Shown here one piece after another: positions 39,001-45,000 of a stretch of DNA of 49,036 nucleotides (its first letter is position 1; each line of letters begins with the position of its first letter). This stretch comes from a virus (Duplodnaviria; Heunggongvirae; Uroviricota; Caudoviricetes). The stretch lies in IMG/VR virus record IMGVR_UViG_2718217787_000014, one strand, 5' to 3'. A program made the position numbers.

Positions 39001-42000
39001 TTTTACCGCTGAACACAAAATTCGTGCACCCGGTCATCAGTTCGTCAGCTATGGATTTGGCCTGGCTCAGCGCGTATTTTTGCCCGTCGTTCTGCACCTG
39101 ATAATTCGCAAACGAGCATTTGCTGTGCAGAGGCTGGATGCCCGAACGATTCAGGATTTTTTCCACCCGCAACTGGTGATTCTGGCGGTTAATCTCCTCG
39201 CTGCGTTTTCGTCCTTCAGCAAGTTGCCATTCCCGCCACTCCTCCACCGTCCGGTACGGTGGAACCGACGCCTGTGGTGCAAGTCTGCGAATACGTTCAA
39301 GAACCCCGGCTGCCGCAATGTTTTTCATGCCACATCACCCCCTGAATCCCGGCGGAATTTCGGTATCCGGTTCAGAAATATGATTCACACAACGCTGGTT
39401 GTTCGTGCCGCTTACCGGGAGCAACCAGGGGTTTTCAAAATTCCGGTCCGGCCCAAAAAACGTCGTCGCTCGCTGAACAAATTCCGTTCCCGCTTTCCCG
39501 GTCGCCGCCAGGTATCTCGCGTAACGCCTCACACCATCCAGCATGGTCTCTGGTGGCACCCCCTCGCGCAATCTGGCCTTCCAGGCACTGAAAGCGGATT
39601 TCTTCGGGTTTGCCCCAGCACGCAACGGGTATTCCCGCCAGACCTGTTCGAACACATCCGGATAATCCACTCGTCCCACAGACTGCCCGGTGCTTTCCGG
39701 GACTACCCGATCGGCTTCCCGCTGAATGGCGGAATCGGCTTCAGGCTGCTGCAGTTGGTGTGATTGCTCCGACCCTGCGGTCATCACCTGCTGCACAGCG
39801 CCCGAATCGGCTTCCGGTGTCGTGCCTGCTGGCTGACCAGGATTGACGGTCTGAACATCCCCTGCCTGGTTCGTGGTGTTTTTTTTGCCATGAACCATAG
39901 TGTTTTTGTCCTGTTCCTGTTCTTTCTCCTGCTCCTGTTCCTGTTCTTGGCTTCGAAGCCCCTTAAAAGCCCCTTCGAAGCCCCTTACCGAATTTCGGCT
40001 ATTATTCCGCCTCACATCCAGATGGAAATCCGTTTTATATCTGTCGTAAAACACTGACAGAAAAGCGTTTTCAGGTAATGATGCATACTCATTCCTGACA
40101 CCTGCACAACGGTTATCGCCAGGCTTCAACGTTTCCCCAACCTGCCAGGCTGCCATTTCATGGACCCAGACCATCTCTGCATCATGGTCATAGCTACAAA
40201 AACCAGCTTCAACAGCCCTTTTAAGCCCCTTTGAAGCCCCTTCCAGACCAAGCCCGGTTTCATGAGCAAGGTATAAAACTGGCAGGTAATACAAACCCAG
40301 CATATTTGCGTGAGGGGATGTCATCAGGTAAAAAGCAACAACTTGCGCTTCTGCACCCGCCTTTCTAAGTTCTCTCCCCGTTTCTCCCAGCCAGAATCGC
40401 GGAGAAACTTTTGCGTAATCACGCATGGCTACCTCATCTGGTGCCGAACCTTCCTCCGGATATAATCTGTGGTTCCCAATCGACAGAACCAGAGGAGGTT
40501 CGACATGTATTTTTTGAAAAGCCTTTATCAGGCTCATGTATTAAATGTTGCAGCAACAAACCGCTGGTGTAACAGCCCCGAAATGCTCCCGGATTACAGA
40601 GCCTGGCTGCGCGCCGAAACATACCTTCGTCTCGACATATTGATTAGCGAACTTCAAAAAGAGACTGCATCCATTCATAACCTTCAGGGTATCGACGCTG
40701 TTCGCATTCTGGTATCGCGCCATAGTGCTCTCTCAATAATTGAAGTGCGTCATCTCTCTTTTTCTGAACTGATTTTCTTGCTTCAACCAGCTCTGGAATC
40801 AGCGAATATCCCGCCGGAAGTGATCCAATACCCACCTCATGTTGACGAGCAGTTACAAGATGTGCCATACAACCAGCGTGCTGGATTGACTCCCTGCTCA
40901 GAGGCTGAATGGGATCACTCTCTGCTGAAGAAATACCAAGATTTGTATAATCCTCAATAAGCCCGGCACACGCTTCTGCATCAGCCAGCTTTATTCTGGT
41001 TTCCTTGCGCTGTTCTCTGGCTGACAAACGCCAGAGCAGCGCATTAGCTTTATGTATCAACCACTCTGCCAGCTCCACATCAGATAAACCGCCACGCCAG
41101 ATGTGCGGACTGTTTTCGTAAACGCTCAGTGTCAATTTTTTGTCATTACTCATATTTATTACCCAATTAATGCACAGCCAGAGTGTTTCCTGCCGGGCCA
41201 CCACGATTCATCTGATCGAACAGAACGATCGCTGATGCAACGAAATCATCAATATCTTTCACCAGCCGTTCCTTCGTCTCTACCAACTCCCGAAAATAAG
41301 CGGAACTGTGGCTGCGCATTCGGGCCACCAGCGGAGGCGGCATCGCTTTTTCGATCGCTGGTAACAACGCCTGAATTTTTTTAACCGCATCAGGAGTGTC
41401 TTTCTCCACCCAGCGGAAAATTTTCTGAGTATTGCGAGCCATGGCTTCCGGATGGCTGTCGTCATACAGTTCCGGGAACGTCATTCCCAGCTCGAAATAC
41501 GCTTTGGTAATTTTCGCAGCCGGTACTTTTTCGCCGTCCGGATGCGCCCAGGCATTCATCGCCATGCGGATGTGTTCATGCTTGATTTTCATGAATCAAC
41601 TCCGGCGCATTTGATGTGTTAACCTTACATCCAACAGGTAAACCGTCGGTTGGGTTAGGATAAATATCTGGGCGGATTTCATGCGGGGTAACTTCCCACT
41701 TCATTAGTTGGCATAACGGAATTACCTGCTTTGGGGGAACGCCAAAGCTAAACCATTGCCAAACAGTCTGTTGAGCGACCCCCATATAACGACCTATTTC
41801 AGCCTGAGTGTATTTCTGCCTAATTTTTTCGCGAGTGCTATCTAGCATTTTGCCCTCCTCTAAAAACTATAAGCAAAGCCTACAATAAAAAACTGTATGC
41901 AATCAACAGTTTTTTATTGTGATGCTTTTAACAGTATTTACCTGTAAAATTGAATAATGATGAGCGCCCTAGAAGTATCTATGTACAGAATCAGCAAGCT

Positions 42001-45000
42001 TCTTCAGGAAACTGGATGGAGCCAGGCTGAGCTTGCCCGTAGAATTGGTGTGACACAACAAACTGTTCAACAATGGGTCAGCGGTAAGGCTACACCTAAA
42101 GCCTCAAGTTTGGATAAACTGGTTGAGGTTTCAGGGCATCCATTGCATTGGTTTTTATTGCCTCCTGAAGAGTGTGAGCAAATTTTCACCCCTGACACGA
42201 TGAAAATTGGTCCTCGCCAACGCGAACTGCTCCAAGCTTTTAGTGCGTTTCCTGAGGAAGACCAAGAAAAAATGCTTCAAGAAATCAAAGACAAGAAAAA
42301 ATCAATGGAAGAAACCATTGCTAGGTGGCTGGCGGCACAAAAAAGCCGCCGGGCGTGACCACAGTACAAGAAGAGGAGTTATGCCATGGGTACAGCCCTT
42401 TCTCCGATAGTTTCAGAATTCGAAACTACCGAACAAGAAAACAGTTACAACGAATGGTTGCGCACTAAAGTAACGTCAAGCCTTGCAGACACTCGCCCCG
42501 CAATTCCACATGACGAGGTAATGGCTGAAATGGAAAATCTTATTGCTCAAATTGCTGTAACTAACAAGAGCGAGTAATGTTACCCATTTTATGGCTACCG
42601 TCTGCTCGCGATGATTTGCGCCAGATCATAACTTACATCGCCAAGGAGAACCCACCGGCAGCACGTAGACTAAAAATACGCATTGAAACATCGGTATTAC
42701 CTCTATCTGAGCATCCGTACTTATATCCACCAAGCGAACGGGTTTCTGGATTGAGAGAGATCGTGACCCACCCTAACTACATAATCCTGTACAGAGTAGC
42801 TGCTTCAAGCATTGAGATTGTAAGCGTGACACATTCTCGGCGACAATTTCCCTTCTCTATCTGAGTTGAACAATTTTCATACTCCCTCTTTCGAGGGATT
42901 TTTTTGCCCAAAACAACAATTAAAAACTGTTGACACAAAAACAGTTTTTTATTGTAGATTACATACACCAACCACCCACCCCGCCCCACAGAACGCCGGG
43001 CAATACTTCGAGTTACCAAGCAGTGGTCAGGGGGTAAGTAGCCAGCCCGAGGCGTATGAACATGACGGCAGGGTTCAACTTTAATAACTATGCAGCAGGT
43101 TTTTGTTCCGCTACCCGGCGTTAAGGGGAAATGAGGTCAACATGGATACTATCGATCTTGGCAACAACGAATCTCTGGTGTACGGCGTGTTTCCCAACCA
43201 GGACGGTACATTCACCGCGATGACGTATACCAAAAGCAAAACGTTTAAAACCGAAAATGGTGCCCGTCGCTGGCTGGAAAGAAACTCAGGTGAGTGATAT
43301 GGATTTCGACACAATCATGGAAAAGGCTTACGAAGAATACTTCGAAGGCCTTGCCGAAGGCGAGGAAGCTCTCAGCTTCAGTGAGTTTAAACAGGCGCTT
43401 TCCAGTTCGGCAAAATCTAACGACTAACGGAGTTAAAGATGGAATTTAAAGATTTACTAAAAGAAATCCAGGAAATTGCAGCACATGCACTTCACCAACG
43501 TCTGAACGAAGTTGAATTAGAATCTGCAACGAAGAAATACATTGATAATATGGCTCGTAATGTGCGCGATGCGTTTACCGGATTGTACTCTGTTTCGGTA
43601 ACAAACAACCAGAATACTGAAGAAACTGCAAAGCGGATTGCCTCGGTGATGGGTTTTCATGTCGAGGAAAAGTATTCAAAAAAAGAATTCTGGAAAACTA
43701 CAAAAAAATTGCAGAGCGAGAACTGTCATCTCCTGCGGCAATCGCTTCTTTCTATGAGGAAAGTTATTCAGATGACACAGGATTACCGGAACTGCTCTCA
43801 TTACTTGAAAAATTCGGAATTATCATGAAAGGGACTGCGTCGGCGGATTTCACATACTCAATGATGGCTGCTGATGGAGAGCCTTTTCCTCCCGAACTTA
43901 AAATAACCCCCGGCAATCATCCGATGGTAACAATAAGAGCAATAGAGAATTACTGGTTTAATCCAGTTCAACAATAGTTGGTCTTTGCAATATTTTTAAT
44001 GGGCCACTACGCCCTTAATCTCGGGCGGCGTTTAACTCTTTATTCAGTAAATCAGACTGATACTGATTTGGCTTTGTAATGATACTGTCAAGTTTTGATA
44101 TATGAAATTCAACATGTTCTGGACAGTTAAAAATGTAATAACCGCCCTTCTCTAAAAAGCCAGAAAGAGCGTTACAGGCAGGGCATGGTTTGTTTGGCAT
44201 TTTATCCTCCATTAAGGGCTGAATTAAAAATGGAGACCAACACGCTGCTACGTGTGGTCGTGCGCCGGACACAGATAAGAATCCGGCACTGACAGTTTAC
44301 TGAAAGGATATATCCCTGAAAAGTCAGGGCATAACACGAAAGTGCACGGCGAAGTCCTTCTCCCTTAGAGCCGTCGTTAAATTTAATTCGACCGTGCGCT
44401 TCCGGTTGTGGCAATCCGCGAAATGGCGCGGCGGTAAGTATGGCGGGGTTATTCTTTCCCCGTTGAGGACACCGGGTTGTCAGGTTGACCATACGCTTAA
44501 GTGACAACCCCGCTGCAACGCCCTCTGTTATCAATATTCTGGTGACATTTGGCGGTATCAGTTTTACTCCGTAACTGCTCTGCCGCCCTTTTTTAAAAGT
44601 GAATTTTGTGATGCGGTGAATGCGGCTCAGCGCACGCGGAACAGTTAAATCGGTAAAGCGGTCATTTGCTGAGTAACGAGAATGCTCTGTATCCGGCGTT
44701 AATTGTTAACTGGTTAACGTCACCTGGAGGCACCAGGCACCGCATCACAAAATTCATTGTTGAGGACGCGATAATGGAAAAGTTATCATGTAATGCCAGC
44801 ACGTCTGAACTTCGTTTCGAAATTGGCGTTATCACTGGAGACAAAACATTTATTGAAGACGCCATTAAGCAGAGAAAACTCGAGCAGGACCTGTTAAATG
44901 AAGTATGCATTCCTTCAATGCTGGCTCGTCTGGACCTGCTGCAAAAAGGATATAAACAATGAATACAACATTTGCACTCGTTCTGACAGTTTATCTTGTT

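Follow-up and report, generated by a model that had tools for sequence, protein, structure and literature searches.

Two AT-rich palindromes about 1 kb apart mark the immunity region of the DNA analyzed here (49,036 nucleotides, referred to as the window), which is the lambda-like prophage Sp4 (CP-933M) of E. coli O157:H7, and they raise the question of which element within them is recognized and by which protein. Site 1 consists of a left arm CAATAAAAAACTGT (41883-41896), a spacer ATGCAATCA and a right arm ACAGTTTTTTATTG (41906-41919), with arms that match at 14/14 positions and can be extended to 15/15 (41882-41896 / 41906-41920). As the sequence-only reading of this DNA had reported, it lies between a divergent cro-like gene (41576-41848, minus strand) and the repressor gene (41957-42358, plus strand), in a gap of 108 bp. 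Site 2, with a left arm CAATTAAAAACTGT (42917-42930), a spacer TGACACAAAA and a right arm ACAGTTTTTTATTG (42941-42954), matches at 13/14 arm positions and is indeed located upstream of ydfA (43142-43297), at a distance of 187 bp. The TTGACA hexamer assigned to its spacer is found at 42930-42935, so that its first T is the final base of the left arm. An exhaustive inverted-repeat scan of the whole window (14-nt arms, at most one mismatch, spacer 0-20) returned sites 1 and 2 only, a quality unmatched elsewhere in the 49 kb. Three exact copies of the 14-mer and a fourth with one mismatch are present, all inside the two palindromes.

The predicted functional unit is a 15-bp site, ACART-N5-AYTGT, present in five copies, rather than the 37-bp palindrome. 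Each arm of each palindrome is such a site in its own right, which speaks against the earlier treatment of a palindrome as one operator. The left and right arms of site 1 correspond to OR1 (ACAATAAAAAACTGT, 41882..41896) and OR2 (ACAGTTTTTTATTGT, 41906..41920), and those of site 2 to OL2 (ACAATTAAAAACTGT, 42916..42930) and OL1 (ACAGTTTTTTATTGT, 42941..42955). A further copy, OR3 (ACAGTATTTACCTGT, 41931..41945), overlaps the predicted −10 element of the repressor promoter PRM; this third site had been missed in the sequence-only reading. OR2 is the exact reverse complement of OR1 (15/15) and is identical in sequence to OL1, while OL2 and OL1 match as inverted copies at 14/15 positions in this window. 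The three OR sites are spaced 24 and 25 bp apart, all inside the 108-bp intergenic gap, and are in register with the predicted PR and PRM hexamers.

The pattern ACAR-N7-YTGT, which OR1 matches, has 7 matches in 49 kb, 5 of them within the two short regulatory regions; the 14-bp version of the pattern (434-type) gave zero matches in these regions in a scan of the window. We also scored the window with a position weight matrix trained solely on relatives with at most 80% identity. Exactly these five sites score between 18.9 and 20.6 (OR1, 20.5; OR2, 20.6; OR3, 18.9; OL2, 19.4; OL1, 20.6), with the next best at 11.5 and the highest shuffle maximum at 18.0, in a test that is partly circular because the downstream sites in the matrix were located with the strict pattern. 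The symmetrised matrix (n = 35 distinct sites) reads ACA-R-T-wwwww-A-Y-TGT, with conserved outer half-sites and a variable AT-rich center.

The sites interlock with candidate promoters. On the minus strand, a predicted PR −35 element read from the sequence (TTGATT, 41901..41906) occupies the spacer between OR2 and OR1, and a predicted −10 element (TAGGCT, 41877..41882) follows after 18 bp, its first T being the last minus-strand base of OR1. Among the relatives, TTGAYN is found in the same register as the PR −35, and in most of those shown a TANNNT-like hexamer begins on the last T of OR1. Expression of ydaT and of the ydaS-like cro gene would start from PR. On the plus strand, the putative PRM −10 element (TAAAAT, 41945..41950) is only 6 nt ahead of the repressor ATG at 41957, implying a leaderless repressor mRNA. 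The arrangement TAAAAT/TAGAAT plus 6 nt plus ATG(ATG) occurs in 7/9 of the loci shown; L010 has TAAGAT and L014 departs from it. Upstream of ydfA, the two OL sites lie either side of the TTGACA read as the PL −35 (42930..42935, plus strand) and adjoin TAGATT, the probable −10 (42955..42960, plus strand). The TTGACA is invariant among Sp4-type variants, and TTGAC is kept in the relatives shown. PL would drive ydfA-ydfB...DicF-dicB. Its predicted spacer is long here (19 bp; 18 bp in most variants), and all of the predicted promoters, including the PR −35, fail a strict consensus promoter scan.

Relatives with 47-80% repressor identity (from Salmonella, Pluralibacter, Morganella, Arsenophonus and metagenomes) carry OR sites at offsets of −75 (OR1), −51 (OR2) and −26 (OR3) from the repressor ATG; two of these sites, the middle one of L014 and the third of L007, depart from the strict site pattern. 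Beyond the repressor operon, site pairs 23-25 bp apart were found in 8/9 QQW-group relatives examined, and the L010 locus ends after a single downstream site. Site number, length, spacing and promoter register are thus kept, with conserved ends and free centers. In 18 distinct close Sp4-type variants, 1/45 site columns vary versus 11/32 other columns (Fisher p = 1.6e-4), in comparative sets that are phylogenetically related. OR1 is invariant across these variants, OR3 varies at its central base only, and 6/9 positions vary in the spacer at the center of the site 1 palindrome. OL2 is unchanged in 23/24 distinct Sp4-type PL regions, the single change being central, and conservation at PL is bounded by OL2 and TAGATT, with highly variable flanks. 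Some of the variability in spacer and flanks could stem from recombination junctions and not from selection acting on the sites.

Both candidate binding proteins are encoded next to OR. The repressor (133 aa, 41957..42358, plus strand; ECs_1069, ‘phage repressor protein’) has a 434-like HTH at its N terminus, joined by a flexible linker to a C-terminal domain, modeled as two helices, that PaaR2 and DicA also have. Its Pfam matches are to HTH families only, with no peptidase domain among them. The best PDB matches are to the 434 repressor HTH (E about 3e-5), aligning TQQTVQQW with TQQSIEQL. The Cro-like protein (90 aa, 41576..41848, minus strand) is of the YdaS family (Pfam YdaS_toxin, 8e-10), and its recognition helix, AQQTVWQW, likewise starts with Gln-Gln. 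In 434 co-crystal structures, the recognition-helix glutamines make base contacts. Changes of helix accompany changes of site in the relatives, for example QRW with ACAC-N7-GTGT, with amino-acid/base covariation at helix position 7 that is clean only in some groups. The Stx-phage CIs, whose HTH domains are ~50% identical and whose helix is SAQSVQYW, are without ACA...TGT sites. From the Gln-Gln helices common to both proteins and the experiments on the CP-933P paralogue, we infer indirectly that the repressor and the Cro-like protein read the same sites. The sites very probably bind both proteins; they are located at OR, between the divergent genes, and at OL, at the leftward early promoter, the two positions expected in a lambdoid immunity region. 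The proposal that the palindromes are likely repressor-binding sites is thereby supported.

The repressor gene is followed by genes for a PaaA-type antitoxin (42386-42577, plus strand; Pfam PaaA2, 5.6e-19) and a ParE toxin (42577-42864, plus strand; Pfam ParE_toxin, 2.9e-17; E = 3e-36 to the ParE2 structure 5cw7), so that regulator, antitoxin and toxin stand in order on one strand, as in the PaaR-PaaA-ParE three-component gene order. Immediately ahead of site 2 is a terminator-like hairpin (TCCCTC-TTTC-GAGGGA plus a T7 run, 42883..42905, plus strand; −9.6 kcal/mol, z = −3.9), with a stem that is conserved and a loop that is variable among variants; it probably closes the repressor-paaA-parE operon just before OL. 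Neither the toxin-antitoxin pair between the repressor gene and site 2 nor the hairpin had been noticed earlier. On the other side of OR, a YdaT-family protein (a CII-like activator) is encoded, and a perfect TTGATT-N6-AATCAA is found at 41582-41599. Downstream of ydfA (DUF1391), ydfB and dicB are annotated and DicF RNA is located at 44537-44588.

It is highly likely, in our judgment, that the palindromes represent OR and OL of the Sp4/CP-933M switch, whose 15-bp sites would be bound by a repressor dimer and competitively by the YdaS-like Cro. The sites themselves, their statistics and conservation, the register they keep with the promoter hexamers and the way they track the recognition helices are read directly; the binder, promoters, start sites, cooperativity, looping and site-filling order belong to the model that we infer. 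In this model, the repressor dimer and the YdaS-like Cro would compete for the 15-bp sites through 434-like HTH domains with Gln-Gln recognition helices. OR1 and OR2 flank the predicted PR −35 and adjoin its −10, so bound repressor would silence ydaS/ydaT together with the replication genes. OR2 is placed just upstream of a putative weak repressor promoter and OR3 over its −10, an arrangement that would let the repressor first activate and then repress synthesis of its own transcript, a leaderless repressor-paaA-parE mRNA. At PL, sites bracketing the TTGACA and abutting TAGATT would keep ydfA...DicF-dicB silent. The 24-bp center-to-center spacing, together with a C-terminal domain in common with octamer-forming PaaR2, suggests cooperative pairwise binding, and possibly OL-OR looping over about 1 kb; the basis for oligomerisation and looping is 65% identity to a PaaR2-type protein over only the C-terminal 46 residues.

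Other readings of the palindromes were weighed against this one. The sequence-only reading implicitly took each 37-38-bp palindrome as a single indivisible operator, one per promoter, for a tetramer or an extended dimer. The near-perfect inversion of the paired sites in this window (15/15 for OR1/OR2, 14/15 for OL2/OL1) favors this, as do a perfect 15/15 palindrome at PL in most Sp4-type variants and a mild excess of inverted over direct similarity between neighboring sites in relatives (7/9 OR pairs); under cooperative pairwise binding, moreover, the pair would be the functional unit in vivo. However, OR3 is solitary, with the same 15-bp pattern at a conserved offset, and the neighboring sites of the relatives are not inverted copies of each other (11-14/15, about equal to their direct identity), each keeping its own ACA...TGT symmetry. 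Taken singly, each arm has a pseudo-palindromic form and carries the outer pentamers found in the 434 14-bp dimer site. Among close variants, no stretch varies more than the center of the long palindrome, and the length of this center ranges from 8 to 10 bp. We consider an indivisible operator unlikely.

A role of the five sites as operators for the PaaA-ParE complex (type II toxin-antitoxin autoregulation), for YdaT or for a host nucleoid protein, instead of for repressor and Cro, we judge very unlikely. According to a review of Hallez 2010, the PaaA-ParE complex partly represses the paaR promoter; yet several relatives that lack the PaaA/ParE genes have the full set of five sites at unchanged positions, which argues against toxin-antitoxin operators. 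YdaT has a different, experimentally defined motif, the TTGATT-N6-AATCAA found elsewhere at 41582-41599. The sites are AT-rich, like many nucleoid-protein sites, but their sharply conserved ACA/TGT ends and free centers point to a specific HTH dimer, and for all three candidates the tracking of site sequence with the recognition helices of repressor and Cro argues otherwise. We give almost no weight to the palindromes acting as nucleic-acid hairpins, whether as a transcription terminator, an RNA regulatory stem-loop or a DNA cruciform. Their RNA folds reach −12 to −16 kcal/mol with z-scores of −3.7 to −6.4, a stability that is automatic for any long palindrome, and the stems are nearly all A-U without a T-run behind them. 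Given the predicted promoters, transcription would begin downstream of both palindromes and leave them untranscribed, and a separate, conserved GC-rich terminator hairpin already stands ahead of site 2. Arm-to-arm complementarity is not kept in the relatives, in which no compensatory arm-to-arm changes were seen, and a search of Rfam gave zero family matches at the palindromes.

The preferred reading, a lambdoid switch built on 15-bp sites, can be compared with known systems. The 434 operator is ACAAT-N4-ATTGT, contacted over 5+5 bases with a center that is read indirectly. It resembles the Sp4 site in its outer pentamers (ACAAT...ATTGT versus ACART...AYTGT), its variable AT-rich center and the presence of several sites per operator region, and in both phages the recognition helix of repressor and Cro starts with Gln-Gln. 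The Sp4 site has one extra central base pair (15 bp with an N5 center, versus 14 bp with N4), so the 434 geometry is not directly transferable. Only the HTH domain of the Sp4 repressor resembles the 434 repressor, the C-terminal part being a short helical domain and not a RecA-sensitive peptidase domain. The repressors of Gifsy-1 and Gifsy-2 of Salmonella are also short, about 31% identical and of the same architecture; as cited in the literature, they are inactivated via antirepressors and not by RecA-mediated cleavage.

A DicA/DicC-type layout with two operators, as in Qin, had been proposed for this locus. The parallel to Qin and the OR/OL positions stand; the two operators become five 15-bp sites (3 + 2), and Qin itself is credited in the literature with three operators at each promoter. 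Over 111 aa the Sp4 repressor shares 28% identity with DicA, its distant homologue, and the ELL..F.A.PE motif at the C terminus is common to both; the Sp4 protein is similarly short (133 aa versus about 135 aa) and of the same architecture without an Ala-Gly/peptidase cleavage domain. In both systems a Cro-like gene diverges from the repressor gene, a second group of operators lies at the ydfA-ydfB...DicF-dicB promoter, and the logic is bistable and lambda-like. Qin differs in the DicA recognition helix (SHVSVSQW) and in lacking toxin-antitoxin genes between its repressor gene and PL-like promoter. The suggested comparison with the dicA/dicC operators showed them to be unrelated: the DicA sites, read directly in Qin, are 18-bp TGTTAG-N6-CTAACA, and nothing similar to this motif was found at the Sp4 locus.

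Neighboring lambda operators are about 23-24 bp apart, center to center, and the lambda repressor mRNA is leaderless. Sp4 resembles lambda in that a three-part OR separates divergent cI-like and cro-like genes, in operators that overlap PR, PRM and PL, and in a CII-like activator, YdaT, whose site falls at the cro/cII junction. It differs in operator sequence and length (17 bp in lambda), in having two OL sites where lambda has three, and in a repressor that is not a LexA-like autoprotease.

The closest characterized system is not Qin but the paaR2/ydaS/ydaT immunity region of CP-933P/Sp12 (Jurenas et al. 2021, PMC8630535; Prolic-Kalinsek et al. 2023, PMC9986795); the window's immunity region is the CP-933M/Sp4 paralogue of this paaR2-paaA2-parE2 / ydaS-ydaT region, and a CP-933M homologue is stated in the mBio paper on the CP-933P region. 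In CP-933P, PaaR2 and YdaS both give footprints in the intergenic region, experiments show PaaR2 to be leaderless, the PL-like promoter is repressed ~100-fold by PaaR2 and likewise by YdaS, and the YdaT motif TTGATT-N6-AATCAA has been footprinted (PMC8630535; PMC9986795). The gene order is alike (ydaT, ydaS, operators, repressor, paaA, parE, PL-like promoter, ydfA), as is the −10 to ATG geometry of the leaderless repressor; YdaT is 86% identical, with an identical site at the ydaS/ydaT junction, and the C-terminal 46 residues of the Sp4 repressor are 65% identical to a PaaR2-type protein. In contrast, the BLASTP alignment with the PaaR2-type repressor begins at residue 37 of the Sp4 protein, leaving its N-terminal DNA-binding domain unaligned; the Cro-like proteins are without any alignment; the PaaR2-type locus has GTTTAGT-type repeats versus ACART-N5-AYTGT in Sp4; and three OL operators are credited to CP-933P where we find two sites. 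A PaaR2-type DNA-binding specificity for the Sp4 repressor was rejected on the unaligned N-terminal domain and the differing operators. The Sp4 and CP-933P immunity regions thus appear, from their sequences, to be heteroimmune paralogues.

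The two AT-rich palindromes lie where the sequence-only reading placed them. Site 1, on the OR side of the repressor gene, consists of CAATAAAAAACTGT (41883-41896), ATGCAATCA and ACAGTTTTTTATTG (41906-41919), with arms matching at 14/14 positions and extending to 15/15. Site 2, upstream of ydfA, consists of CAATTAAAAACTGT (42917-42930), TGACACAAAA and ACAGTTTTTTATTG (42941-42954), with arms matching at 13/14 positions; the TTGACA hexamer also reported there was found at 42930-42935. The palindromes are not due to chance. A search of the whole window (14-nt arms, at most 1 mismatch, spacer 0-20) returned no third such inverted repeat, and no further copy of the 14-mer with fewer than 3 mismatches occurs in the window outside the two palindrome sites.

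The arms of the palindromes are themselves imperfectly palindromic (ACAAT-AAAAA-ACTGT), and the corresponding pattern, ACAR-N7-YTGT, has seven matches in the 49 kb, five of which fall inside the two regulatory regions: OR1 (41882-96), OR2 (41906-20) and OR3 (41931-45) on the repressor side, and OL2 (42916-30) and OL1 (42941-55) on the ydfA side. The two-operator arrangement first proposed gives way to five 15-bp sites, three at OR and two at OL, of which OR3 had been overlooked. A 14-bp version of the pattern, the length of the phage 434 operator, was rejected, as neither regulatory region contains a match to it. We consider it very probable that these sites form the three-site OR and the two-site OL of the immunity switch of Sp4/CP-933M, built from 434-like half-sites at 15-bp spacing, with binding, promoters and looping all predicted. 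Searches of the accessible literature, including by locus tag, found no account of these operators, and an earlier mapping may exist.

The stretch matches E. coli O157:H7 at 100% identity and in strain Sakai falls within 'prophage Sp4, lambda-like phage', the repressor being ECs_1069, 'phage repressor protein'. About 510 of 5,426 complete E. coli genomes carry the repressor gene and OR region. From ORFs and Pfam matches, the gene order comprises a YdaT family protein (41167-41592) and a YdaS/Cro-like protein (41576-41848) on the minus strand, a 133-aa HTH repressor (41957-42358) on the plus strand, and after it a PaaA-type antitoxin (42386-42577) and a ParE toxin (42577-42864). Right after parE and ahead of OL, a GC-rich, terminator-like hairpin on the plus strand (TCCCTC-TTTC-GAGGGA, 42883-42898, with a T7 run to 42905) has a conserved stem and a variable loop among the Sp4-type variants, and probably terminates the repressor-paaA-parE operon. 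The genes ydfA and ydfB, DicF RNA and dicB lie 3′ of site 2, with the DicF small RNA, identified through Rfam, at 44537-44588 on the plus strand (RF00039, 76.9 bits) and dicB next. Since DicF and dicB lie downstream of a PL-like promoter, the operator pair at 42916-42955 would control two cell-division inhibitors.

The slot between repressor and OL holds PaaA/ParE in the window and in two relatives (L006, L009), and in three others (L003-L005) it is occupied by unrelated ORFs 112-152 aa long; this is the behaviour of a moron insertion site within the immunity region. A 400-aa ORF (39335-40537, minus strand) lying upstream of the ydaT side contains the low-complexity stretch QEQEQEQEKEQEQ; the overlapping gene is a phage replication protein in the Sakai annotation, and in RefSeq the gene is modelled as shorter than the longest ORF. 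At the prophage end, the tyrosine integrase (window about 48000-49010; 12504-13510 in L001, an identical O157:H7 TR01 record) is annotated as frameshifted in that record, which would fit a defective Sp4 prophage.

We collected 92 related loci, excluding the window's own region. A scan of species-representative genomes contributed four usable loci (44 others matched the HTH only), and the phage collection contained no close repressor homologue. Distant relatives (47-80% identity), whose recognition helix reads (T/A/S)QQT(V/I)QQW (the QQW group), came from Salmonella, Pluralibacter, Morganella, Arsenophonus and metagenomes. In nearly all of them, three sites lie at −75, −51 and −26 from the repressor ATG and two further sites, 23-25 bp apart, lie 3′ of the repressor operon. 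Under the strict pattern L014 departs at its middle site and L007 at its third, and the L010 locus ends after one downstream site. The arrangement is independent of the intervening cargo, several relatives having no PaaA/ParE at all. Their symmetrised consensus, ACA-R-T-wwwww-A-Y-TGT, has conserved ends and free centres. A position weight matrix for which only relatives at ≤80% identity were used picks out the five window sites and no others, with scores of 18.9-20.6 against a next best of 11.5 and a highest shuffle maximum of 18.0; its upstream input sites were taken at fixed offsets, and its downstream ones were located via the strict pattern, which makes that part circular. The scan found no third site at OL.

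Close variants resolve the same units. Among 18 distinct OR sequences from 41 loci (repressor identity ≥91%), 1/45 columns vary within the sites versus 11/32 elsewhere (Fisher p = 1.6e-4). The OR1-OR2 spacer (41897-41905) is the most variable intergenic stretch, with 6/9 positions varying, and the 15-mers on either side of it are invariant; the part of the spacer belonging to the predicted −35 element of the cro-like gene (TTGAT, minus strand) is nearly invariant, with TTTAT in 1/18 variants. On the ydfA side the conserved block is exactly OL2-TTGACA-OL1-TAGATT, and both flanks are highly variable. The OL spacer (42931-42940) is 10 bp in the window versus 9 bp in most Sp4-type variants; the extra A, in an A-run, is present in only 2/24 distinct PL variants (L060, L068) and lengthens the spacer of the predicted promoter from 18 to 19 bp. 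The right-hand OL site reads TATTGT in the window versus AATTGT in most variants.

These comparisons bear on other explanations of the palindromes. That each is a single indivisible long operator is contradicted by the existence of OR3, by the variable centre and by relatives in which arm-to-arm complementarity is missing. Neighbouring sites in distant relatives show an inverted identity of 11-14/15 and a similar direct identity; since they are not inverted copies, the long palindrome is a peculiarity of the Sp4 type, and together with the variable centre this rules it out as a conserved unit. We also reject a hairpin or terminator function. The predicted stability is that expected of any palindrome, the palindromes are not conserved as such and lie upstream of the predicted start sites, and a separate conserved terminator is already present 5′ of site 2. 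Assigning the sites to the toxin-antitoxin complex is contradicted by their presence in relatives without toxin-antitoxin genes, and assigning them to YdaT by a distinct YdaT motif located elsewhere, the perfect TTGATT-N6-AATCAA of TTGATTTTCATGAATCAA at 41582-41599, at the ydaS/ydaT junction. The five 15-bp repressor/Cro operators are the reading we retain.

Promoters were predicted by hand reading and register conservation; a strict consensus scan picked up none of the three. PR, for the cro-like gene, would comprise TTGATT (41906-41901), an 18-bp spacer and TAGGCT (41882-41877) on the minus strand, its −35 element bracketed by OR2 and OR1 and its −10 element beginning on the last T of OR1. 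The predicted −10 element of the repressor promoter PRM, TAAAAT (41945-41950, plus strand), begins on the last base of OR3; its −35 region is poor and has OR2 immediately upstream, at the place an activating repressor would occupy. PL, for the ydfA operon, would comprise TTGACA (42930-35), a 19-bp spacer and TAGATT (42955-60) on the plus strand. The register recurs in the examined QQW-group relatives, with minor departures in L010 and L014. Only 6 nt separate TAAAAT from the repressor ATG at 41957, and the ORF starts ATGATG (41957-41962), leaving no room for a Shine-Dalgarno sequence, which suggests a leaderless repressor mRNA. Leaderless translation is known for lambda cI. The ATGATG start and its spacing recur in seven closer QQW-group relatives, and are absent from L010 and L014.

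In the PDB, the repressor is best matched by the HTH of the 434 phage repressor, the TQQSIEQL of which aligns with TQQTVQQW in the window protein. In 434 co-crystal structures, the two glutamines make contact with the ACA triplet. In the predicted structure of the window repressor, an HTH domain of five helices is joined by a disordered linker to a pair of C-terminal helices; a fold search returned generic HTH domains only, including 434 and P22 c2, and no match for the C-terminal domain. The Cro-like helix is AQQTVWQW. Across the family both proteins keep Gln-Gln, and Arg or Lys at helix position 7 of the repressor is matched by Arg or Lys in the Cro-like protein. The sites track the recognition helices: a changed helix is accompanied by changed sites (for example SQQTVQRW with ACAC-N7-GTGT), and ACA...TGT sites are absent with Stx-phage CIs (HTH about 50% identical, helix SAQSVQYW). 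A clean link between helix position 7 (equivalent to 434 Gln33) and half-site position 4 was rejected: QRW goes with ACAC...GTGT, and no simple fit was seen for the QKW groups or L008. We therefore claim tracking only, and no base-contact code. The repressor has no peptidase domain. By analogy with DicA and the Gifsy repressors, it would more probably be inactivated by an antirepressor than through RecA-mediated cleavage.

Among known systems, the resemblance to Qin DicA/DicC proposed at the outset holds for the layout and the dicBF-type downstream operon and fails for the operators. Qin has three operators at each promoter by literature count, and its sites, read directly, are 18-bp TGTTAG-N6-CTAACA, different from those of the window; DicA is only 28% identical to the window repressor, and the Gifsy repressors 31%. 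The 434 operator is ACAAT-N4-ATTGT, with 5+5 contacted bp and a centre read indirectly (PMC1636474). The window sites share its outer pentamers and have one additional central bp; a 434-type half-site, if read at a spacing of 15 bp instead of 14 bp, would imply that the dimer adopts a different geometry on these pentamers.

The nearest characterized system, studied in detail, is the paaR2-paaA2-parE2 / ydaS-ydaT region of prophage CP-933P, in which the intergenic region is footprinted by both PaaR2 and YdaS, a PL-like promoter is repressed about 100-fold by both, YdaT is CII-like in action and PaaR2 is translated from a leaderless mRNA, shown experimentally there and inferred for the window repressor (Jurenas 2021, PMC8630535). 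The same paper notes a homologue of its locus on CP-933M. The window is this homologue and not CP-933P itself, since PaaR2 begins MQKKE versus MMSALEV for the window repressor; ParE2, for which a crystal structure exists, is paralogous to the window ParE (E = 3e-36). In our collection the PaaR2-type locus (L139) has the published GTTTAGT repeats at both operator positions. The alignment of its repressor with that of the window begins only at residue 37 of the latter (65% identity in the C-terminal 46 residues) and its Cro-like protein gives no alignment, whereas its YdaT is 86% identical and the 18-mer TTGATTTTCATGAATCAA is identical at the same junction, its motif being the one footprinted in CP-933P as the high-affinity YdaT site OM. 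The PL-to-ydfA leader of about 180 nt (window 42961-43141; L139 2060-2240; ACCAACC.ACCCCGCCCCACAGAACGC...GGGGAAATGAGGTCAAC) is common to the heteroimmune prophages, and the switch from immunity-specific to shared sequence falls no more than a few bases from the PL −10 element.

The O157:H7 paralogues thus differ by a swap of Cro, operators and repressor DNA-binding domain, a classic immunity-cassette exchange. The two paaR-paaA-parE loci are heteroimmune and retain YdaT, its site and the repressor C-terminal domain, which is useful for extending the CP-933P work. The shared C-terminal domain and the octamer-forming PaaR2 make mixed oligomers conceivable. The DNA-binding domains and operators of the Sp4/CP-933M and Sp12/CP-933P repressors are unrelated, and we regard it as improbable that mixed oligomers couple the immunity switches of these co-resident prophages; they would do so by bridging the two prophages' operators or by mutual titration, and the state of one cryptic prophage would then set that of the other. 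The predicted map of five 15-bp sites and three promoters gives the Sp4/CP-933M switch precise operators. In concept the switch is ordinary lambdoid and leaves current understanding in place, its operators being a new, heteroimmune case of a very well-known type of system.
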